DNA from: a virus
DNA length: 24,034 bases
Strand: one strand, 5' to 3'
Virus record (IMG/VR): IMGVR_UViG_3300049639_000129
Location: 1 to 24,034 of that record
The translations under genes were made by a program, and so were the position numbers. This document shows positions 5,711 through 19,722 of the stretch, piece after piece; position 1 is the stretch's first letter, and the number at the start of each line of letters is the position of its first letter. The notes under the pieces were generated by a model, which made no database searches, had not been told where the DNA came from, and worked only from the letters and a program-made list of their open reading frames with translations.

Positions 5711-6601
5711 ATGACAAACACACCCCCCGCGACGTTGAAGAAGGCTTATACGGGGCTCTCAGGGACCAGGGAAAAATCTAAAAAGTTCTTTATTTCTGCT
5801 GGGACTGCTTTTTTAGACCTGGAGCTCGCGAGCCGTGCCAGAGAGATATATCGAGTTTACGGGTATGATAATTATTTACTTCATTTTTATATAGGTCTCG
5901 GATTGGTGGTTACTGCTACCGTCTGGATCTGCTTAAAAGACGACGCTATCTTTTATAAAGTCGGTAATTTCTTAGACTTTTTGTATAGATGGATAATGAG
6001 AAAAGATTTCGTTTATAAACATGATGATAAAAAAACAAGCGACAAAGACATCGACGAGCACGTAAAAGTTAAGAAAATGTCTAAGTTCGGGATAATTTGG
6101 TTTAAGATCCTGACAATATACAAAAAATACAAGTGTAACACCGGGGTTATTTTCGTAGTCAATCCCCAGGACGTCCAGGACTTAGACGACTTTAACGAAA
6201 CGACTGCTTTACTACTTTACAGCCTACAGCCTGGGATCTTACAAAAATACCACACACTCCAAAGCCAGGACATGAGCGATATAGCAGAGCAGTATGAGGA
6301 ACGTCTTAAACTGCCCCCAGAAGAGCTTGGACCTGCTGAGAGAGTCGGGCTTTTTTACACCAAACAATTTTTACAAAGTCTTTCAGGGAGAGTTAACTGG
6401 GCTTATTTCATTTTCCTCGGTACTGGCTATTATACAGATGAAGAAAAAGCTAACCTGGAAGTATCTAGGATTATTAAAGCCTATCAGCTCTTTCTCGAAA
6501 ATTCCGGTATTGAGTCAAGGCTCATAACCTCGCCTTACGAGTACGAATTGATAACCAGGCAAATGCGGAGCATGAAAAATATAGGGGTGGTTACTGTATG
6601 A
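5711..6601 (+). CDS. VirB3/PrgI-like membrane protein with soluble C-terminal domain
   Basis: N-terminal hydrophobic segment(s); translationally coupled to VirB4 by an ATGA overlap at 6598-6601. Confidence 0.5.
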   Translation: MTNTPPATLKKAYTGLSGTREKSKKFFISAGTAFLDLELASRAREIYRVYGYDNYLLHFYIGLGLVVTATVWICLKDDAIFYKVGNFLDFLYRWIMRKDFVYKHDDKKTSDKDIDEHVKVKKMSKFGIIWFKILTIYKKYKCNTGVIFVVNPQDVQDLDDFNETTALLLYSLQPGILQKYHTLQSQDMSDIAEQYEERLKLPPEELGPAERVGLFYTKQFLQSLSGRVNWAYFIFLGTGYYTDEEKANLEVSRIIKAYQLFLENSGIESRLITSPYEYELITRQMRSMKNIGVVTV

Positions 6602-9309
6602 GTATCCCAATAATGTATAAGATCCTTCCAAAGCCCATAAAGAGGAGCTGGGCAGAATTCAAATGTTTTGTAAACGTTAAAAACTGGTTTAAACAGTTTG
6701 AGGAGATCGACAGGCGGCTCGTCCTGTCCCTTTCTCCTACTGTTTTTAAGCCAAAATGGGGAGGGCGGTATCTATACGCTGACGGCTGCTATATGCAGAT
6801 TATAAGCGTAGGAGATCCAAGTCCAGTTAATCCTAATAGGCAGGGAATACCCCCTAGAAAGGATCTTAGGCTTATAGATGACCTGCTAGACATCCCAACT
6901 GGGGAAAATGCCTGCATAGGAATTACGCAGACTGCTATACCCCTGCCTCCGAGAGACGAGATCGATGCCTTAGAGAACGCCAGGCGCGAAAATATCCTGG
7001 CGGCTGCAATGCAGGAAGCAGAAAACGAGGGCGTCTTTAAAAATATTCACGATAAGATTATCGACTATATAGCTGAGGGTATAAACGAGTATAACCGGGC
7101 AGTATTCGAGGGCCGTATGAGAATGTTTGAATTCTCGCTCCTGGTTGCGGTTAAGGGGAAGACTACAAAAGACGTAGACGACCTTATGAGCCTTATTATC
7201 GCTCTCCTGGACGGTAAGAGGGTAATACATGAAATCATAGAGTATGGACAGACTGACGCATATTATATGATGATGCCGACGCCGTTTATTAAGGAACGGC
7301 TTCTCTCGACCACAACCGGCGAGATGGTCGCCAGGACCAGCCCATTACGGAATAAAAATCCGAGGCTAGCGAAGTCGGGCCACTGGCTAGGGCTTAACGA
7401 GGATACAAATAACCCAATTTTCCTAAATTTCAAAGACGGAAGCCTGGTTTCTGGTCATGCTATAGTAATAGGAAAAAGTGGATCTGGAAAGTCGACTGAG
7501 CTTCTTAAGGACAATAAAAGAGTTCTTGAGATGGGAGACGAGGCTTTCCACATTGTCCCGAAGGCTGACGAGGATACTAACCATATCAACGTATGTAAAG
7601 AACTTGGCGGGCAGCTTATTAAGATCGGGCATATGCAGGCGGGGGCACAGGATGCAGACACTAACCCTAACATGTTCCAGGTCTTCTTTGATCCGGAAAG
7701 AATGGATAACTCATTAGGATCTTACCAGCTTGCGTTTTCTAAACATATGTCGCTTTTGCCGGATGTTATCGGGCTCCTAATTGGTGACAGTTTTTCAGAC
7801 CCTCAGAAAAATTGGGTATATAGCTCGCTGGTAGAGTTATACCACAGGCGAGGAGTGACAGACAACAACGGAAACGTCATTAACCTGGATAAATGGGAAG
7901 ATGGCAACTTCTGGCCTAATTTCGATGATTGGCGGGCTCTCATATATGAGTGGATGCAAGACGATGAGCACAAAGCCCCTAATGTGAATTCTGTCCTTGC
8001 TGCCATCTATAACAATACAACCATGATAACCCGGAAAGGGCCTTACGGTTTCCTTGTAAATAACAACATCCTAAAGCTTAGGAATAGATTTACAATGGTT
8101 GACCTTTCCGAGCTCATAGACTCGCCTAATATTCAGGACGCGTTGATCCTGCTTATTACAGGGATCATTAACACAAAGATCCAATGTGTACCGAAAGGGC
8201 AGGTTAAGAAACATATTTTTATTACCTTGGACGAAGGCGCAAACCTGGTTAAGATCCCACGGATGCGAATCGTAATTGAACGGATGTTCAGAGAGCTTCG
8301 CAGTTTTGGAGGTCATCTTAAAATAGTATTCCAGGACCTAGCAGGCGTGCCCCCGGAGACGATACTTATGATGAAAACAAATTCCGACTACGTGCTCCTG
8401 CTTTCTAACATGTCAGCCTATAACATAAAGCCGTTAGTTAAAGAATTTAACCTCACTAGAAACGACATAAGGAGACTTAAAGCGAAAGGAAAAGGAAAGG
8501 GCCTCCTGATCGTCGGAGACACGCGTATAAACTATTTCAATTCACTTACTGAGGATGATGAGAGGGTAATCTTTGGGAAATCGTTGAAAGTTGATTCTGA
8601 GAATACAGAGCAGTCGGCTGGATTCTGCCTGGATAAAAGGGTACAGTGGGTAAAGGATAAACATAAAGTCTTTTTAAAAGACTGGCTTACCGGCATACCT
8701 TTAAACCAGGTTATACGGGTACCCGGCTACGAAATGGAGCAATTCGACCATCCATTCAAGGCAGGAAAAAAGACGGTTTATGTTGAAGTCGGGCTCGAAA
8801 AAGAGGACGGGCACATCAAAAACCAGACGAAGGAACATTACCTCTTTGCCTGCGCTCTCGCAGGCGAAGGCTCATTAATGGGAGCAGTCGCAACTACTGA
8901 CGACTATGGGACACATCAAGAAGTAGACGTTAAGCTAGTCTTCAACCAGGGGACTGATAACGAAACTGTAATCGGGATTGAAGTTGAAATCGAAAGATCG
9001 CATACGGCAAAGGAACTTCAGGAAAAACGAGACAGGTTATTAATGAGAAAACGCGATGGGAAGCCTGAATTTGACCATATAATTTTCACGGGAACACATG
9101 ATTATTATAAAACGACACTCCGCGACGCCGTTGGGCCCGATTATTCAGCCCCCAGAGGCAAAAGGCTAAGGGAAAAAATACTCGCTTGCGTAAAAACAGG
9201 AAAGAGGGCAGCCGATGACGAAAAATTAAAGGGCGGAGAAAACCAGGATTCAGGAAATCCGCCTGATTTAAACGTGTATTCCTGCGAATCGACCGCTCAG
9301 GAGGCTTAA
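6598..9309 (+). CDS. virB4: VirB4-like conjugation ATPase with extra C-terminal domain
   Basis: Walker A GKSGSGKS (7471-7494), Walker B ITLDEG (8221-8238), R-S-F-G-G arginine-finger region, GxG motif (KGKGKGLL), long VirB4-type N-terminal domain; 903 aa. Confidence 0.85.
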   Translation: MSIPIMYKILPKPIKRSWAEFKCFVNVKNWFKQFEEIDRRLVLSLSPTVFKPKWGGRYLYADGCYMQIISVGDPSPVNPNRQGIPPRKDLRLIDDLLDIPTGENACIGITQTAIPLPPRDEIDALENARRENILAAAMQEAENEGVFKNIHDKIIDYIAEGINEYNRAVFEGRMRMFEFSLLVAVKGKTTKDVDDLMSLIIALLDGKRVIHEIIEYGQTDAYYMMMPTPFIKERLLSTTTGEMVARTSPLRNKNPRLAKSGHWLGLNEDTNNPIFLNFKDGSLVSGHAIVIGKSGSGKSTELLKDNKRVLEMGDEAFHIVPKADEDTNHINVCKELGGQLIKIGHMQAGAQDADTNPNMFQVFFDPERMDNSLGSYQLAFSKHMSLLPDVIGLLIGDSFSDPQKNWVYSSLVELYHRRGVTDNNGNVINLDKWEDGNFWPNFDDWRALIYEWMQDDEHKAPNVNSVLAAIYNNTTMITRKGPYGFLVNNNILKLRNRFTMVDLSELIDSPNIQDALILLITGIINTKIQCVPKGQVKKHIFITLDEGANLVKIPRMRIVIERMFRELRSFGGHLKIVFQDLAGVPPETILMMKTNSDYVLLLSNMSAYNIKPLVKEFNLTRNDIRRLKAKGKGKGLLIVGDTRINYFNSLTEDDERVIFGKSLKVDSENTEQSAGFCLDKRVQWVKDKHKVFLKDWLTGIPLNQVIRVPGYEMEQFDHPFKAGKKTVYVEVGLEKEDGHIKNQTKEHYLFACALAGEGSLMGAVATTDDYGTHQEVDVKLVFNQGTDNETVIGIEVEIERSHTAKELQEKRDRLLMRKRDGKPEFDHIIFTGTHDYYKTTLRDAVGPDYSAPRGKRLREKILACVKTGKRAADDEKLKGGENQDSGNPPDLNVYSCESTAQEA

Positions 9310-11268: not shown

Positions 11269-11682
11269 ATGCCTCTCGTAGCAACCACAGTGAAATTAGA
11301 ATCTGACAAATTAGAACTTATTAAAATGAAGCAGGTGAACGTTTCCCAACTCTGCCGAGATGCTGTAGACTCTTATCTTAAATTAAATAGCACAGATAAA
11401 GCCGTTATAAAGAGCCAGATCGCAGACTTACAACAGCAAAGGAATTCTATTGACCTACAAATAAAACTCCTCCTGAAGCAGTTAGAAACATGTGAGAACG
11501 AAGACGTACTCAGCACTCACAGGAACGCAATGTTTGAAAAGTGGAAAACTAACATGGCGTTTATGGTCAATAAAAAGACTATTGATTGGGGGACTGTTTC
11601 GGATGTCTTCAAGTTCTCAACAAGGGCAGAATGTGAGGCGTATATTATAAATAGGTTAAAAGAAGAAGGATTAATTACATAA
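11269..11682 (+). CDS. Ribbon-helix-helix transcriptional regulator with coiled coil
   Basis: N-terminal strand-helix-helix pattern (ATTVKLESDKLELIK..VNVSQLCRDAVDSYL), heptad segment, helical C-terminal domain; GGTGA SD. Confidence 0.75.
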   Translation: MPLVATTVKLESDKLELIKMKQVNVSQLCRDAVDSYLKLNSTDKAVIKSQIADLQQQRNSIDLQIKLLLKQLETCENEDVLSTHRNAMFEKWKTNMAFMVNKKTIDWGTVSDVFKFSTRAECEAYIINRLKEEGLIT

Positions 11683-11702
11683 CACTTCCAGAGGGGTATC
11701 GA

Positions 11703-11837
11703 TTGACAGGCGACAAATCCGAGGTGGAGAGCCAGCTTGCAGAAATTGAAAAGGAAATAGAGTGTTTAGATGCTCAAAGGCGTCTACTCCTTTCCATTCT
11801 TGAAACTATTAATAACGAAGTCCCGACAGGGGCTTAA
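11703..11837 (+). CDS. 44-aa coiled-coil mini-protein paralogous to the RHH protein's coiled coil
   Basis: TTG start after GAGGGG; MTGDKSEVESQLAEIEKEIECLDAQRRLLLSILETINNEVPTGA; 14/35 ungapped identities to the upstream gene. Below the ORF-track length cutoff. Confidence 0.7.
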   Translation: MTGDKSEVESQLAEIEKEIECLDAQRRLLLSILETINNEVPTGA

Positions 11838-11932
11838 TCACTCTTTTATCAAAATCGTTATCAGTTGATGGTGTGTACACGTACACACATTTAATTTAGT
11901 CTATTTTTTTGTTTCCTTATTTTTCCTTTTTA

Positions 11933-12010
11933 GTTTGGTTGTGCAAATATAAGCATAACCAAACGTAAGTTATATATAGTAATAGGTTGTATAGTATATT
12001 GTACAACCTA
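11933..12010 (+). promoter_or_regulatory. Array element copy 1: hairpin + BRE/TATA + 28-bp palindrome
   Basis: GTTTGGTTGTGC/GCATAACCAAAC stem, then CGTAAG-TTATATATA, then TAGGTTGTATAGTATATTGTACAACCTA (11983-12010). Confidence 0.9.
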
Positions 12011-12049
12011 ATAGTAAAACGGATAATAAAAGAACTAATAAAAGGAGAC

Positions 12050-12103
12050 AACCAAACATAAGTTTTATATACTATTAGGTTGTATAGAATATTGTACAAC
12101 CTA
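12050..12103 (+). promoter_or_regulatory. Array element copy 2 (no upstream hairpin arm)
   Basis: AACCAAACATAAG-TTTTATATA; palindrome at 12076-12103 with one spacer substitution. Confidence 0.9.
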
Positions 12104-12141
12104 AGAGAAAACAATAACAAAGTAATACGGAGGAAAAGAAA

Positions 12142-12537
12142 ATGATACTCAATTTGACCCAACACGCAGCGACCCCAGAACAGAAGGCTCAACTCGTAGT
12201 AGAGCCTAGAATGTGCAAAGCAAAAATACAGAAACTTCTTACTTTCGATGAGATCCCTTCAAAAGAAGAAATCGAAGCAAGAGCCTCAGAGCTGGCGGAA
12301 ATCGCAGTGTCTGAGGCAAATCATTACGCGGGTGAGACTGACAATAGAATCTGGATCACCCGCGTAATGATAGGTGGTGCTCCGTTTTTCATGGGAGCAC
12401 TCGAGAAAGCACTCCGGGAATGCGGGTTTACCCCCGTATACGCGTTTTCGAAAAGAGAGAGCGAGGAAATCCCACAGCCGGATGGGTCAGTCAGGAAGAT
12501 CGCAGTATTCCGGCACATTGGATTCGTGGAGGTCTGA
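12142..12537 (+). CDS. Csx20/Csx15-like small Rossmann/CARF-like protein, candidate ring nuclease (copy A1)
   Basis: N-terminal LNLTQH..TPEQ and C-terminal MIGG..G.TPVYA.SKRES.E..QPDG..RK..VFRH.GF resemble the recalled Csx20/Csx15 consensus; GGAGG SD. The ORF is certain, the function is inferred. Confidence 0.6.
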   Translation: MILNLTQHAATPEQKAQLVVEPRMCKAKIQKLLTFDEIPSKEEIEARASELAEIAVSEANHYAGETDNRIWITRVMIGGAPFFMGALEKALRECGFTPVYAFSKRESEEIPQPDGSVRKIAVFRHIGFVEV

Positions 12538-12540
12538 AAA

Positions 12541-12975
12541 ATGACCTCCAGACTCAACGCACTGGAGAACAGTTTTCCTCCAGAGATATTGGATAACACA
12601 TTCAAAAAAATCGTTAACAAAGCCTTGTACGCAAGGCTTCGTGAAATGGAAATCGAGGGTGCATCTGATAGACAGATGTACTCTGAAGTATTCAAATATA
12701 TTAGCCCAAAAGAAATCCCAGCGTTTCCGGGGGGGCTGAAATATGTCAAACGTGGAGCATTTCGCTTCCGTTTCGTCGCGAATCAGAAATACTATCGGAG
12801 CCCGTGCTTCGTAGTAGAGCCAGTTCCAGATATAGATCAAGCGCTCCGAGAGCTTCACCTCAGATATAATGATCTCCCATATGAGGAGTATAAAAAAGCC
12901 AGACTTCAAGAAATTGAAGGGCTTCCATACGACAAAAAATACTTGCGCCCACCTCGGACAAAGTGGACGTTGTGA
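12541..12975 (+). CDS. Hypothetical protein (copy B1, 144 aa)
   Basis: Paralog of 14795-15271; starts 3 nt after the A1 stop. Confidence 0.85.
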   Translation: MTSRLNALENSFPPEILDNTFKKIVNKALYARLREMEIEGASDRQMYSEVFKYISPKEIPAFPGGLKYVKRGAFRFRFVANQKYYRSPCFVVEPVPDIDQALRELHLRYNDLPYEEYKKARLQEIEGLPYDKKYLRPPRTKWTL

Positions 12976-13017
12976 ATCGCGCACAAGGAGAGCTTTAATA
13001 GGGGCTTTTAGCCTCTC

Positions 13018-13104
13018 AAAACTTACGTTTAGTTATAAGAAATATATCATAACCAAACGTAAGTTTTATACAGTAATAGGTTGTATAGTATATTGTACAA
13101 CCTA
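13018..13104 (+). promoter_or_regulatory. Array element copy 3
   Basis: 19-bp stem (13018-13036 / 13049-13067, one mismatch), TATA, palindrome at 13077-13104. Confidence 0.9.
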
Positions 13105-13149
13105 TTAGAAAAACAGGAACGCCAAAGCTAATAAAAGGAGAGAACCAAA

Positions 13150-14064
13150 ATGTTAAAAATAGGAGAAAAGGATACTAAATATGGAGTCTTTGAATTCTTC
13201 CTCAAAGAGGAAGATCAGGTAAAACTTGTTTGTGTCCACGGCGGCAAGACCGCTGAAACCACTTTCTGCGGTCAAATCCGGGGGCACAACGCAATGAATA
13301 TTGAAAAACTCGACGTGAAAGAAAACGGAAAAACGATGATGTTCATAGGGCTTCCCGATGAAGTTTACAATGCATTTCAAAACGCGAAATCAAAATTCGC
13401 GCTGAAAAATATCCACCTAACATATGCAGGACGGAGCGCAGAAACAGGGATAAAATGGTATTCATTGAGTGCAGTAGTTCCCCGGGATGTGTGGAGAAAG
13501 AACGCGAAATACTTCGAGAAATTCGAAGAAGACGAAGAGGACGCAATTGACGGAGAGCTTTACGGCTGGCTCACAGCACAGCCCGAAGCCGTTGAGAAAA
13601 ATTTGAATGTCAGGGAAGAGCTTACCCTGGCATATAGGGGAGAACAGGCAAAGAAGAGAAGAGAAGAGAAAGAGAAAAAAGCTAAGGAGCTACAGGAAAA
13701 AATTGACGACATCAAAAAAGCCTTTGAGAATGCAGAATACCCAGATCCAAAGAAGGAAGCTCCTGGAGAAGCTGCTCAGTTTCGACCAGGATACGAAAAA
13801 ATGCGGGTTGATGGGGAAGAAATTCAGCACCCCATAAATCCAGAAAACGCATGGGGTGGCGGCGAGTGGTGGGTAATTCAGCCAGAATGGATCTGGCACA
13901 TTAGAAATAACGGCTTCGACGGGGATGACTGGGGCCGGAACAACGTGCAGACAGGAGGAGCCGGCGCGATTGGCGTAAGAGTTCCATATTCTGAAGAACT
14001 TGCCGCACAAATCAGGGAGCTTAAAAAAATGACAGCGCGAAAACCGAACACTCCTAAAAAATGA
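13150..14064 (+). CDS. Hypothetical protein C (304 aa), acidic/charged, Trp/Gly-rich C-terminal domain
   Basis: Long ORF with AAAGGAG SD; C-terminal GGGEWWVI..WIW..RNNG.DGDDW..NNV.TGGAGAIG segment. Confidence 0.85.
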   Translation: MLKIGEKDTKYGVFEFFLKEEDQVKLVCVHGGKTAETTFCGQIRGHNAMNIEKLDVKENGKTMMFIGLPDEVYNAFQNAKSKFALKNIHLTYAGRSAETGIKWYSLSAVVPRDVWRKNAKYFEKFEEDEEDAIDGELYGWLTAQPEAVEKNLNVREELTLAYRGEQAKKRREEKEKKAKELQEKIDDIKKAFENAEYPDPKKEAPGEAAQFRPGYEKMRVDGEEIQHPINPENAWGGGEWWVIQPEWIWHIRNNGFDGDDWGRNNVQTGGAGAIGVRVPYSEELAAQIRELKKMTARKPNTPKK

Positions 14065-14110
14065 CCAAATCCCGGCAGTTAAGTTAATTTCACTTTCCTT
14101 ATTTTTCCTT

Positions 14111-14192
14111 TTACGTTTGGTTATATTAATTTTAACTTAACCTAACGTAAGTTATATATAGTAATAGGTTGTATAGTATATTGTACAACCTA
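14111..14192 (+). promoter_or_regulatory. Array element copy 4
   Basis: 13-bp stem (14111-14123 / 14138-14150, one mismatch), TATA, palindrome at 14165-14192. Confidence 0.9.
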
Positions 14193-14238
14193 TTAGAAAA
14201 AACGGGAACACCAAAGCTAATAAAAGGAGAGAACCAAA

Positions 14239-14634
14239 ATGATATTAAACCTTACACAACATGTCGTGACCCCAGAACAAAAAGCTCAACTGGTTGTTGA
14301 GCCTAGAATGACGAAAGCAAAAATACAGAAACTCCTCACATTTGAGGAGATCCCCACGAGGGAAGAAATTGAAGCAAGAGCGAAAGAGCTCGCAAGAATA
14401 GCCGCGTCCGAAGCGTCGATGTACGCGGGTGACACCGATAACATGATTTGGATCACCCGTGTAATGATCGGTGGCGCTCCGTATCTCATGGGGGCACTTG
14501 AGAAAGCACTCCGAGAATGCGGGTTCACTCCCGTATATGCTTTTTCGAAAAGAGAGAGCATAGACCAGCCACAACCTGACGGATCAGTCAGGAAGGTCGC
14601 AGTATTCCGACATCTCGGGTTTGTGGAGGTCTGA
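14239..14634 (+). CDS. Csx20/Csx15-like protein, candidate ring nuclease (copy A2)
   Basis: 111/131 aa identical to 12142-12537 by manual comparison, with the same motifs. Confidence 0.6.
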   Translation: MILNLTQHVVTPEQKAQLVVEPRMTKAKIQKLLTFEEIPTREEIEARAKELARIAASEASMYAGDTDNMIWITRVMIGGAPYLMGALEKALRECGFTPVYAFSKRESIDQPQPDGSVRKVAVFRHLGFVEV

Positions 14635-14672
14635 GCAGTTGTTAATTTCTCTTTCCTTTTTTTTCCTTTTTA

Positions 14673-14750
14673 GTTTGGTTATACCAATTATAATATAACC
14701 AAACGTAAGTTTTATATAGTAATAGGTTGTATAGTATATTGTACAACCTA
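14673..14750 (+). promoter_or_regulatory. Array element copy 5
   Basis: Perfect 11-bp stem GTTTGGTTATA/TATAACCAAAC, TATA, palindrome at 14723-14750. Confidence 0.9.
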
Positions 14751-14794
14751 AGAGAAAACGATAATAAAAAGAACTAATAAAAGGAGAAACCAAA

Positions 14795-15271
14795 ATGATG
14801 CAAAGAACTACACAGAAGGAAATAGGAACAGAAGTGACCTCAAGACTCAACGCACTGGAGAACAGTTTTCCTCCAGAGATATTGGATAACACATTCAAAA
14901 AAATAGTAAATAAAGCCTTGTACGCAAGGCTTCGTGAAATGGAAATCGAGGGTGCATCTGATAGACAGATGTACTCTGAAGTATTCAAATATGTTGACCC
15001 TTCCGAAATCCCAGCGTTTCCGGGGGGGCTGAATTATGTCAAACGTGGGACATACCGCTTCAGGTTCGTCGCGAATCGGAAGTACTACAGGAGCCCGTGC
15101 TTCATAGTGGAGCCAGTTCCAGATGTAGATCAAGCGCTCCGAGAGATTAATATTAGATACAATTATGATCTCACATCCGAGGAGTGTAAAAAAGCCAAAC
15201 TTCAAGAAATTGAAGGGCTTCCATACGACAAAAAATACTTGCGCCCACCTCGGACAAAGTGGACGCTGTGA
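14795..15271 (+). CDS. Hypothetical protein (copy B2, 158 aa)
   Basis: Paralog of B1 with 13 extra N-terminal residues; AAAGGAG SD. Confidence 0.85.
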   Translation: MMQRTTQKEIGTEVTSRLNALENSFPPEILDNTFKKIVNKALYARLREMEIEGASDRQMYSEVFKYVDPSEIPAFPGGLNYVKRGTYRFRFVANRKYYRSPCFIVEPVPDVDQALREINIRYNYDLTSEECKKAKLQEIEGLPYDKKYLRPPRTKWTL

Positions 15272-15327: not shown

Positions 15328-15789
15328 ATGACTGTTTATAAACTTGACAAGGGTGCTCACTCCGTATACACCCTGCATTACCATTTAATTCTCGTCGTGA
15401 AAGACAGGAGAAAAGCCCTGTATAACGAGGTAATCAGGGAAAGGTTAAAAGAAATTATATATAAAATGGCTGAAAAATGGCAAAGAGAAAAAAATACAGA
15501 AATGGCTATTGAAATCGTAGCTCAAGAGCCGGGGGAAGATCACCATTATATTCTCTTCAAGGCAACCCCTCGCACCTCTCTTACAAAAGTGATCAACAGC
15601 ATCAAAGGAGCCTCCGCGAGAGTCCTTAGAAATGAATTTCCTGAAACTAAGAAATTCTTATGGGGGGATGCTTTCTGGGCACCTTCATACTTCTTGGCTA
15701 CGACAGGACAAGTTTCTCTTGATGTCCTAAAAGCCTATGTCGAAAGTCAGGAAAGCAAAAGAGAAAAGATCTTTGGAAAATTAAAGTAA
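15328..15789 (+). mobile_element. tnpA: IS200/IS605-family Y1 transposase with degenerate HUH motif; no tnpB
   Basis: KGAHSVY.LHYHL, SIKG.SAR, FW.PSYF..T.G and catalytic Y..SQ present; HUH reads H-H-Y (15541-15549) and KYRR reads KDRR. Confidence 0.9.
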
Positions 15790-16260: not shown

Positions 16261-16507
16261 AAACATCAGAAAATATTATGATGTAATCAACGAATCGGAC
16301 CGCATAGTCTCAGCCTTTGAATATGGGAAATTTCACGTCTGTATGAAAAACGAAGCCGGAGAACTCGGACTTTTCCAAAAGAATCTCATCAAAGAAAGCG
16401 GGGACATGTATCTTCCATCTTTTGAAAACGCGCCTCTGTTTATCAGGAAGCCTGGGAAGATTGTGGTCATTGCGCCTTGTGAAGTTAAGGGGGTTGGTAA
16501 TGTCTGA
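16202..16507 (+). CDS. Hypothetical protein (101 aa)
   Basis: GAGGAGTGA SD; overlaps the start of the next gene. Confidence 0.75.
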   Translation: MIRNAENTLMSVEHENELPENIRKYYDVINESDRIVSAFEYGKFHVCMKNEAGELGLFQKNLIKESGDMYLPSFENAPLFIRKPGKIVVIAPCEVKGVGNV

Positions 16508-16883
16508 AATCGAAATCCTCAACATGCGTAATACTCATCTAGTCGCGGACCTCTGCTTCAGGATCGACAGAAAAACGAAATGGGGTAATCCCTATAAAAT
16601 GCGCTCAGAACGTGAACGGATGGATGTTATTAAGAAATACACTTACTATCTTTTAGATAGTAAGTTACTCGATGATATTCACGAACTTGAAGGTAAATGG
16701 CTGGCATGTTGGTGCCATCCTAAACCTTGTCATGGGGATGTCCTAAAGTACCTCGCTGAACATCCTGAACTAGTCGGGATGTATCGAGGCGGGGCGATTT
16801 CGAGGGATGACGTAATACAAAGGATCTGGCAGGCTAATGGATGGAAGGGGGAGCAGGTAGGACAGCAGATGAAGTTATTTTAA
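16500..16883 (+). CDS. DUF4326-family protein
   Basis: Motifs IDRKTKWGNPY and LEGKWLACWCHPKPCHGDVL. The start is reassigned from 16422 to ATG 16500 (MSEIEIL), which follows a G-rich SD. Confidence 0.85.
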   Translation: MSEIEILNMRNTHLVADLCFRIDRKTKWGNPYKMRSERERMDVIKKYTYYLLDSKLLDDIHELEGKWLACWCHPKPCHGDVLKYLAEHPELVGMYRGGAISRDDVIQRIWQANGWKGEQVGQQMKLF

Positions 16884-18759: not shown

Positions 18760-19722
18760 ATGTCTGTAACAGCACCAAATGAAGAATTTTTGACTAAGCG
18801 GTTCCTTATCCCGAAAATGTACGAGATAATGAACCCTCTGCTTGCCTGGACTGACATATTCCCACAGGTTCGGGCTACTGCTCCTGTAGTCGCATATAAG
18901 CAGGAAATCACAAGCGATTCTGGAGATACTAAGAAGGAAAGACCTAAACTGATGACTACATCAGGCCAGTGGACTTATGTGGAGATCTCGCAGTTCACGA
19001 TGAAAGCTGCAAACCTGAACAAGCGCGGTTTTGCGATCAAAATCGACCAGGACGCTCTAGATTATGTAGAGGGCGTTGACGAAATCCAGAGAGCCCTACG
19101 GAAGACTGGCTATTGGATTGCCGAAGATTACAATACAAGGATATCCACTGAAATTGCCAACAGTGGAACGGATCTCGCAGGGGAATGGAATCCAGCTGCC
19201 GAATGGTCCGATGCAAACGCCGCTCCGATTTCAGACCTGGAAGACCTCGAAGATGCTTTCATTCGGGAAGGATACCCGTACAGGCTCACGGATGTATTCA
19301 TCCATAAAGACAATTTCAAAGAGCTAAAAAAATACCTTACATCCCTTGATATCGACCAGTATAAACACGAGAAGCTCTACGGTACTCCGAACAACGGAAA
19401 CCGCGACACTCTGGAAATTCCAGTCGTGGGAGCTACAGTTCACCGGCTTCTCTCAGGAATTTCGGAAGGGTCTATTATTGCAATTGACCGCAATAACCCA
19501 GGCATTACAATTTTCTACAACCAGAGCCCCAGATATTCTGCGATGAGTGGAACTTATGAAACCATGCAGAACGGTCAGAAGATCAGCAAAAGCCTGTCTT
19601 ATGGGTTCAACATGAACAAATATTTCGACAACGAGACCCACCAGACTATCATTCAGATGTGGTATGACAACGTACCTGTCACTATTGAACCGTATGCAAT
19701 AGCAATAGATACAGGCATTTAA
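18760..19722 (+). CDS. Major capsid protein, HK97-fold candidate
   Basis: 320 aa; KRGFAIKIDQDAL followed by a long spine helix (EIQRALRKTGYWIAEDYNTRI), W.D..A.PI.DL motif, terminal V..P.AI; GGGAGG SD. Confidence 0.75.
   Translation: MSVTAPNEEFLTKRFLIPKMYEIMNPLLAWTDIFPQVRATAPVVAYKQEITSDSGDTKKERPKLMTTSGQWTYVEISQFTMKAANLNKRGFAIKIDQDALDYVEGVDEIQRALRKTGYWIAEDYNTRISTEIANSGTDLAGEWNPAAEWSDANAAPISDLEDLEDAFIREGYPYRLTDVFIHKDNFKELKKYLTSLDIDQYKHEKLYGTPNNGNRDTLEIPVVGATVHRLLSGISEGSIIAIDRNNPGITIFYNQSPRYSAMSGTYETMQNGQKISKSLSYGFNMNKYFDNETHQTIIQMWYDNVPVTIEPYAIAIDTGI

Follow-up and report, generated by a model that had tools for sequence, protein, structure and literature searches.

Two diverged Csx20-family genes behind a repeated promoter cassette in a putative methanogen virus: candidate cA4 ring nucleases

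Csx20 is a small protein associated with type III CRISPR systems. Its ring-nuclease role was first predicted from conserved His, Arg and acidic residues (PMC8284326), and it degrades cyclic tetra-adenylate (cA4) fully at 100-fold substrate excess and cyclic tri-adenylate (cA3) at higher enzyme concentration, and does not degrade cyclic hexa-adenylate (cA6) (PMC12409355). Hoikkala et al. found it in four of 28,114 phage genomes (PMC12409355), and a 2026 paper described csx20 homologs of Pasteurella multocida in anti-defence operons controlled by Aca14, a ribbon-helix-helix (RHH) protein, and proposed that they are co-opted counter-defence genes (PMC13551039). We found no published test of a viral Csx20 in the literature searched. 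Here we analysed a viral stretch of 24,034 bases (the window), which is the whole of the linear IMG/VR record IMGVR_UViG_3300049639_000129, estimated to be ~34% complete, and which carries two related genes, csx20-1 and csx20-2 (Table 1). We consider it fairly probable that they encode a pair of viral Csx20-clade ring nucleases that degrade cA4 and so counter type III signalling, expressed from repressor-controlled cassettes that double as recombination points. A preliminary description of this DNA had put the two genes forward as a new kind of anti-CRISPR ring nuclease, a claim that does not hold given the phage Csx20 and csx20-aca14 operons already published (PMC12409355, PMC13551039). What adds interest is the methanogen-virus setting, the presence of two maintained alleles and the cassette array.

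Both genes are intact, and a gap-free BLASTP alignment of their products, each of 131 amino acids (aa), gave 111 identical residues (85%), as the preliminary description had reported. The four motifs that it had quoted as invariant (QH..TPEQ, IGGAP, PVYAFSKRES and DGSVRK..VFRH.GF) are indeed the same in the two proteins, and the carrier, which it had called a mobile element, is real and is more exactly a viral contig. The ratio of non-synonymous to synonymous substitution between the copies (dN/dS) is 0.097, a search of a large protein collection returned 1353 homologs at E ≤ 0.001, and the family comprises 1818 clusters at 50% identity. On these grounds we take csx20-1 and csx20-2 to be real genes rather than chance open reading frames (ORFs). 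Both copies are under purifying selection and, judged by their sequences, look functional.

Profile searches placed both proteins in the Csx20 family. The NCBIfam model CAS_Csx20 (NF040559) matched csx20-1 with E 1.7e-9 and 38.1 bits, residues 3-129 aligning with positions 2-122 of the 124 in the model, and it matched csx20-2, again over the full length, with E 1.4e-8 and 35.1 bits; this is the profile match to a CARF-like ring nuclease that had been proposed as a check. In PADLOC, three Csx20 models and a CARF-HEPN-Csx20 fusion model matched (Csx20 E 1.5e-9 for csx20-1). Among the matches listed, 118 of 120 homologs, 63-93% identical to the window proteins, carry the precomputed Pfam label PF27247 (MJ1673). 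A control search with NF040559 matched only Methanocaldococcus jannaschii, the home of MJ1673, so that Csx20 and MJ1673 appear to be two names for the same family. Furthermore, 57 of 58 diverse relatives matched Csx20 and no other NCBIfam family (best E 1.4e-12), which argues for a coherent clade, sister to CRISPR-linked Csx20. We therefore regard csx20-1 and csx20-2, at the level of sequence, as true but divergent relatives of Csx20/MJ1673.

The resemblance to Csx20, first proposed from the family consensus, is thus borne out by full-length profile matches, the three PADLOC models, PF27247-labelled homologs and a shape match described below (TM 0.83). The accompanying link to Csx15 finds no support in NCBIfam, which at E ≤ 10 gave only Csx20 for both proteins, together with one CHIPS row for csx20-2 (E 0.07), and no Csx15; a mixed PADLOC model, 'Csx15/20/peptidase', matched at E 5e-7. 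In a Pfam release that predates PF27247, the 131-aa proteins had no match at E ≤ 1, DUF1874 included, in agreement with the earlier statement that they are distinct from AcrIII-1. No chain in the PDB matched by sequence, and blastn of the csx20 region against phage records returned no match. As for canonical CRISPR-linked Csx20, none above the NF040559 cut-off was found in a sample of 400 genomes from a single bacterial class, and tblastn on plasmids returned only copies labelled 'hypothetical'.

The predicted structure was examined with an AlphaFold2 model of csx20-1 (predicted local distance difference test score, pLDDT, 94.9; predicted template-modelling score, pTM, 0.84), based on alignment A1, a set of 58 diverse family sequences from which the invariant residues were also read. 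The model consists of a short first strand, the NLTQH loop, helices, a central strand, the MIGGAP loop, a helix and a long beta-hairpin, which bears AFS.RES and K..F.H. In a shape search of the ESM Atlas the nearest clusters (template-modelling score, TM, 0.83 and 0.80) were 100% PF27247 (MJ1673) and 81-82% viral. Foldseek against the PDB ranked cA4-bound Cam1 first (E 0.013, probability 0.93), with the ring nuclease Crn1 (Sso2081) at probability 0.80, and the top rows of VIA-align reached Z 5.3-6.1 over ~100 residues at a root-mean-square deviation of 3.0-3.6 Å. These top PDB rows are mostly sensors of cyclic oligoadenylates (cOA) or ring nucleases, among them the SAVED domains of Cap5, Cap14, Cap4, CalpL and TIR-SAVED, along with Cam1, Csm6, Cad1 and a viral SAVED ring nuclease (9r8s). 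The structural comparison that the preliminary description had proposed therefore gave a mixed answer, in that Cam1, Crn1 and SAVED domains do dominate the top rows, but at middling scores (E ≥ 0.013, Z ≤ 6.1). The predicted fold is consistent with a CARF/SAVED-like protein, short of proof.

Invariant in the clade are N4, T6, Q7, H8, Q14, P39, G79, A80, M84, F102, S103, R105, K119, F123 and H125, and the Glu of 'RES' is the majority residue in alignment A1. CARF proteins bind their ligand through loops after the first strand and after the central strand, and in the model these are the places of the conserved loops NLTQH and MIGGAP, respectively. Many family members are tandem two- or three-domain fusions, which is suggestive, though only suggestive, of a homodimer whose ligand site lies on the two-fold axis. 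We propose that csx20-1 and csx20-2 would represent a mobile-element branch of Csx20 (MJ1673), small CARF/SAVED-like proteins of Rossmann type, and that each is most likely a dimer binding cA4, which Cas10 of type III CRISPR systems makes as a second messenger. Cutting cA4 to linear products would mean that the cA4-activated effectors of the host are never switched on.

It is also conceivable that the two proteins are cOA sponges that bind and sequester the messenger and leave it uncleaved. Csx15, a related small CARF-like protein with little turnover, has been discussed as a possible sponge (PMC12409355), and a stoichiometric binder would agree, weakly, with the two gene copies and with the high word depth seen in one RNA library. 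On the other hand, the invariant His, Ser, Arg and Lys are typical of metal-independent ring-nuclease catalysis, and Csx20, the nearest characterised family, does turn over cA4, at a 100-fold excess of substrate (PMC12409355). We regard sequestration as improbable in comparison with cleavage.

The clade is widespread on viruses and plasmids. A pattern-limited scan found it in at least 35 IMG/VR loci; Rhodothermus phage RM378 has a member with 45% identity, and the copy of Pasteurella phage Pm86 is 52.5% identical over its C-terminal half and has the same motifs. In Pm86 a 71-aa RHH gene (RHH_1, E 1.5e-5) immediately follows csx20, and an RHH gene likewise directly follows it on a further contig, L040. 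The Pm86 copy itself (L051, MH238467.1 55549-55725) is unannotated and is truncated where the linear record ends. The family is also carried by 116 plasmids (e.g. NC_003905.1, NC_004444.1 and NZ_CP010421.1), where it is always labelled 'hypothetical protein'; these plasmids are mostly conjugative or mobilizable and come mainly from Citrobacter, Klebsiella, Pseudomonas and Providencia. No informative Pfam partner was found in the longer fusion relatives.

Enterobacteria rarely have type III CRISPR systems, and such carriers lend weight to the idea that the target is another or an additional cyclic-nucleotide signal, for instance the cA3 of CBASS or cyclic dinucleotides, the proteins being general anti-signalling factors of mobile elements. 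The structural ranking is headed by CBASS SAVED domains bound to cyclic GMP-AMP (cGAMP), cyclic di-AMP (c-diAMP) or cA3, and Csx20 degrades cA3 too, if at high enzyme concentration (PMC12409355). However, the characterised relatives, Csx20 and Csx16, are all cA4-specific and linked to type III systems (PMC12409355), SAVED and CARF share a fold, so that a ranking at Z 5-6 cannot separate ligands, and methanogens do carry type III systems (PMC7694759). A different or broader signal as the target is therefore, in our judgement, unlikely, albeit a little less so than sequestration.

As to the pair itself, a nucleotide identity of 78% and a synonymous divergence (dS) of 1.18 indicate, from the sequences, two long-diverged alleles rather than a recent duplication. 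The duplication exceeds one gene, as a second pair of paralogs, o144 and o158, trails the csx20 copies. In five related viral contigs (L014-L018) the gene order is DUF2227, o304, csx20, o144/o158 and DUF4326, and each has a single csx20 and at most one gene of the o144/o158 type. The window copy csx20-1 is nearest to the allele of L014 and L018, and csx20-2 to that of L016 (~92% identical in both cases), which suggests that two circulating alleles were joined in one genome. Recombination at the cassettes described below probably brought them together, and we observed chimeric joints between copy 1 and copy 2 in co-occurring variants, in one DNA run and one RNA run.

The preliminary description had suggested that the paralogs might differ in their preference for cA3, cA4 or cA6. 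This receives no support from the alignment. Of the 31 columns with a conservation of at least 90% in the wider family, 30 are retained in each copy, A10V being the sole difference, and the 20 positions at which the copies differ fall in variable columns (mean entropy 2.71 vs 1.74, permutation p 0.0006). Some changes do flank the conserved loops (A9V/A10V, F82Y/F83L and E108I-I110Q), so that a difference in specificity is possible, with nothing in the sequences that argues for one. Residue 18 (window 12193-12195 and 14290-14292) is Leu in all nine alleles of the virus group and Gly in at least 90% of the wider family. Doubling of the Csx20 domain recurs in the family, both in the tandem fusions and in a pair of adjacent csx20-like paralogs on another viral contig (L045 9525-9914 and 10001-10381).

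The two genes stand in an array of five copies of a ~145-nucleotide (nt) cassette, found before csx20-1 (two in tandem), o304, csx20-2 and o158. Each csx20 is thus the first ORF behind a promoter-like cassette of its own, as had been noted, csx20-1 having two. A cassette reads, in order, a T-rich tract, the palindrome GTTTGGTTAT..ATAACCAAAC, a TATA-like box, a 28-bp palindrome, an A-rich leader, a Shine-Dalgarno sequence and the ATG. The 28-bp palindrome, TAGGTTGTA-N10-TACAACCTA, is perfect in five of five cassettes, where 0.01 would be expected by chance; it has no other occurrence in the window and is conserved in relatives. A core of ~50 nt is nearly invariant among nine cassettes from four viral genomes, beside coding DNA that is near saturation at silent sites, which argues for a strong constraint on the element. 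The position of the palindrome suggests a repressor site overlapping an archaeal core promoter, and a single virus-encoded repressor (o137 or o144/o158) could switch the whole block through this shared operator. A scan for sigma-70 promoters was uninformative, with 12 sites in comparison with 7.2 ± 2.9 in shuffled sequence. The genes orf74, orf79, csx20 and an o158-like gene are all driven by a single cassette in L018, so that a csx20 placed first behind a promoter of its own is a peculiarity of the window.

The first cassette, P1, is empty. Past the Shine-Dalgarno sequence its AACCAAA, normally followed by the ATG, continues directly into AACCAAAC, which opens P2. This junction suggests the product expected of a crossover between two short identical stretches. 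One could take this further and see the block 11905-15271 as a recombination-driven, integron-like anti-defence array of methanogen viruses in which the identical cassettes are both a common switch for one repressor and crossover points, where co-infecting relatives gain, lose and exchange genes, and which has collected two Csx20 alleles that might form a heterodimer or differ in ligand range and so cover a wider set of cOA. We find this doubtful, while giving it somewhat more weight than the other alternatives considered here.

Table 1. Features of the csx20 region; positions are those of the window
Feature	Position	Strand	Description	Basis
o137	11269..11682	+	RHH-like N-terminus then coiled coil; directly upstream of cassette array; candidate Aca-like repressor	
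P1 (empty)	11905..12049	+	T-tract, upstream palindrome, TATA-like box, putative operator 11983-12010, Shine-Dalgarno; no ORF	
P2, before csx20-1	12050..12141	+	putative operator 12076-12103	
csx20-1	12142..12537	+	131-aa Csx20/MJ1673-family protein, candidate cA4 ring nuclease	ORF, NF040559 and model
o144	12541..12975	+	orphan gene, 4 nt past csx20-1; possible DNA-binding partner	
P3, before o304	12999..13149	+	putative operator 13077-13104	
o304	13150..14064	+	no assigned family; behind P3, between the two csx20 units	
P4, before csx20-2	14087..14238	+	putative operator 14165-14192	
csx20-2	14239..14634	+	131-aa csx20-1 paralog, 85% identical	ORF and NF040559
P5, before o158	14645..14794	+	putative operator 14723-14750	
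o158	14795..15271	+	o144 paralog behind its own cassette P5	

Two kinds of neighbouring gene are candidates for the repressor. Residues 1-60 of o137 gave a match to a CcdA-type RHH domain at E 0.0067, below the curated cut-off, and a homolog with 90% identity occurs in L015, which has the operator too; by analogy with the csx20-RHH pairs of Pm86 and L040 we consider o137 a candidate. The second candidate is o144/o158, where there is a weak match to an HxlR helix-turn-helix domain (E ~0.12). Its distance of 4 nt from csx20-1 places o144 in the same operon; its 38 homologs, all at least 68% identical, lie within the virus group and it has no Pfam family. The AlphaFold2 model of o144 is of low confidence (pLDDT 60.7), with a strand-helix-helix-hairpin core at residues 20-80, and a Foldseek search with it gave only noise (TM ≤ 0.27); the Atlas gave no usable match. 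The first ~14 residues of o158 (MMQRT..; window 14795-14840) resemble the start of orf74 (L018 9267-9491), the first gene behind the cassette in L016 and L018, and this extension is missing from o144, so that the start of the gene appears to be mosaic.

The gene o304 is conserved in L014-L018 and had no family match in profile searches and no match in the Atlas. An assignment to Cas4 was dismissed, as the weak rows (E 0.003-0.09) come from a stretch rich in Lys and Glu. Directly after o158 lies a TnpA of IS200/IS605 type (Y1_Tnp, E 1.8e-34; window 15328-15789), which occupies the same place in L015 (91% identical) and is thus no fresh insertion. A DUF4326 protein (E 3e-21) is encoded at window 16422-16883; its homolog directly follows the o158-like gene in L014 and L018, and the gene is possibly part of the same block of accessory genes. 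Elsewhere in the window we observed an ATPase of 903 aa (6598-9309), with a weak match to P-loop proteins of TraG/VirB4 type (E 1e-4), and on the same contig an HK97-like capsid protein (18760-19722).

The sole match of this capsid protein among phage records was an HK97-like head protein of a Methanobacteriales virus (24.5% identity, E 3e-10), and the nearest named cellular homologs of TnpA, at 62-66% identity, are from Methanocella, Methanothrix and Methanogenium. These two lines of sequence evidence point to a methanogenic archaeon as the host. We read the carrier as a tailed virus of such an archaeon. The preliminary description had assumed Methanosarcina, which goes further than the evidence, as this reaches the methanogen level only; a homolog binned as Methanosarcina thermophila sits on a contig that bears only viral genes, and we rejected it as host evidence. 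A bacterial host was rejected as well. Copies with 79-85% identity occur in GCA_900198705.1 among sigma-70, phosphotransferase system (PTS) and type IV secretion system (T4SS) genes, where the viral pieces are short and abrupt. They lie on two very long contigs (L003 and L053) with differing bacterial neighbours, and include a 38-aa fragment of another window ORF, o337. This record looks like a concatenated biogas-metagenome assembly and is unfit for host assignment. The related claim that Methanosarcina species encode type III systems is well documented, as is the cleavage of cA4 by Csx3 of M. mazei (PMC7694759, PMC7371418), and this makes the proposed target plausible.

The stretch is present in bioreactor, anaerobic-digester, wastewater and landfill metagenomes from ~20 studies. 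In one metatranscriptome (X2) we found contigs identical to the window at 12027-13085 (csx20-1 and o144), 14164-14618 (csx20-2) and 14963-15228 (o158), leaving 11514-11984 bare; cover by RNA contigs is also absent over most of o304. Contigs of two RNA studies start at 12027, in one of them with adapter letters directly before. This position could equally be an RNA 5' end, ~26 nt past the AT-rich centre of the palindrome, or an assembly break, as a 72-nt repeat ends at 12028.

Several of these observations weigh against a role of the pair as cA4 ring nucleases directed at type III immunity. Neither copy reaches the curated 70-bit cut-off of NF040559, and the clade, by its sequences, is a sister of CRISPR-linked Csx20 rather than an equivalog, so that activity is not simply transferable from Csx20. 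The likeness to solved CARF and SAVED structures is middling, a Z below 8 being a level common among unrelated Rossmann-like folds. H8, S103, R105, K119 and H125 and the Glu of 'RES' fit the published His/Arg/acidic set by type of residue, not as aligned canonical columns. The many enterobacterial carriers among the plasmids hint at another or a broader target, and a cA4-signalling type III system in the host is an assumption. Finally, contigs from RNA libraries attest presence only, being silent on strand and level, and DNA carry-over is possible.

Taken to the extreme, the likeness to Csx20 might reflect no more than shared Rossmann-like ancestry, and the proteins might have a non-defence role, for example as a nucleotide-binding regulator or a viral replication enzyme. 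This would sit well with the profile scores and with the Z values, and also with the surroundings of the genes: family-profile searches of the window proteins (on a contig ~34% complete) found no cas families or known anti-CRISPRs, and all neighbouring genes are without assigned function. It is harder to reconcile with the 57 of 58 family members that match Csx20 alone, with the placement of close homologs in MJ1673 by Pfam, with the recurrence of the family beside RHH regulators, as in published anti-defence operons (PMC13551039), and with its spread over unrelated viruses and plasmids, which is usual for accessory counter-defence genes. We hold a non-defence role to be the least probable of the alternatives, and degradation of cA4 by a virus-encoded Csx20 pair remains the explanation that we favour.

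Methanogen viruses abound in biogas reactors and landfills, where the dynamics between virus and host influence methane production. We know of no characterised anti-CRISPR protein from a virus of this kind. We believe that the csx20 pair offers clean, short and easily expressed candidates for testing anti-CRISPR activity in methanogen viruses and the function of viral Csx20, and that the cassette will serve as a search handle for further anti-defence genes in these viruses. Furthermore, the wide spread of the clade on viruses and conjugative plasmids suggests that counter-defence of the ring-nuclease type is much commoner than the few published phage cases.

In comparison with Csx20 itself (NF040559, PF27247; PMC12409355), the window proteins are of the same length class (~125-131 aa), align with the profile over its full length and share the predicted fold class, and their conserved His, Arg and acidic residues are alike in kind (PMC8284326). 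Csx20, however, is associated with type III CRISPR systems, whereas the window genes are viral, without cas neighbours, and come from a large clade carried mostly by viruses and plasmids; they score 38 and 35 bits against the 70 of the cut-off, and their activity is a prediction. Closer in setting are the phage csx20 genes and the csx20-aca14 operons (PMC12409355, PMC13551039), with which the window shares the clade, a palindromic operator in the promoter and, with o137 as the candidate, an RHH-type protein nearby. The inverted repeat expected in the promoter of an operon of the Aca (anti-CRISPR-associated) type is thus present, in all five cassettes. Clear RHH neighbours, by contrast, occur only at Pm86 and L040, the window having weak matches (o144 E 0.12, o137 E 0.0067). 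In the window the putative host is an archaeal methanogen, there are two diverged copies, one operator is shared by five cassettes, the RHH-like o137 lies upstream in a unit of its own with a sub-threshold match, and the gene within the operon is the orphan o144, which is not RHH.

The job that we propose for the pair, to destroy cA4 rapidly and so disarm type III immunity, would be the same as that of the established viral ring nuclease AcrIII-1/Crn2 (DUF1874), a family that is unrelated in sequence and has a fold different from the CARF/SAVED-like one predicted here. With Crn1 (Sso2081), Cam1, Cap5, CalpL and 9r8s the window proteins have a Rossmann-like core in common, albeit with a Z of only 4.2-6.1, 5-14% identity and no sequence match to any PDB chain. 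As to regulation, shared regulatory sequences precede early anti-defence genes in Sulfolobales viruses (PMC11065993), and in both cases one promoter element is repeated before several small accessory genes. The window genes might likewise be expressed early, with an element that differs from those of Sulfolobales viruses in sequence and host lineage and that contains a perfect 28-bp palindrome, suggesting a repressor site.

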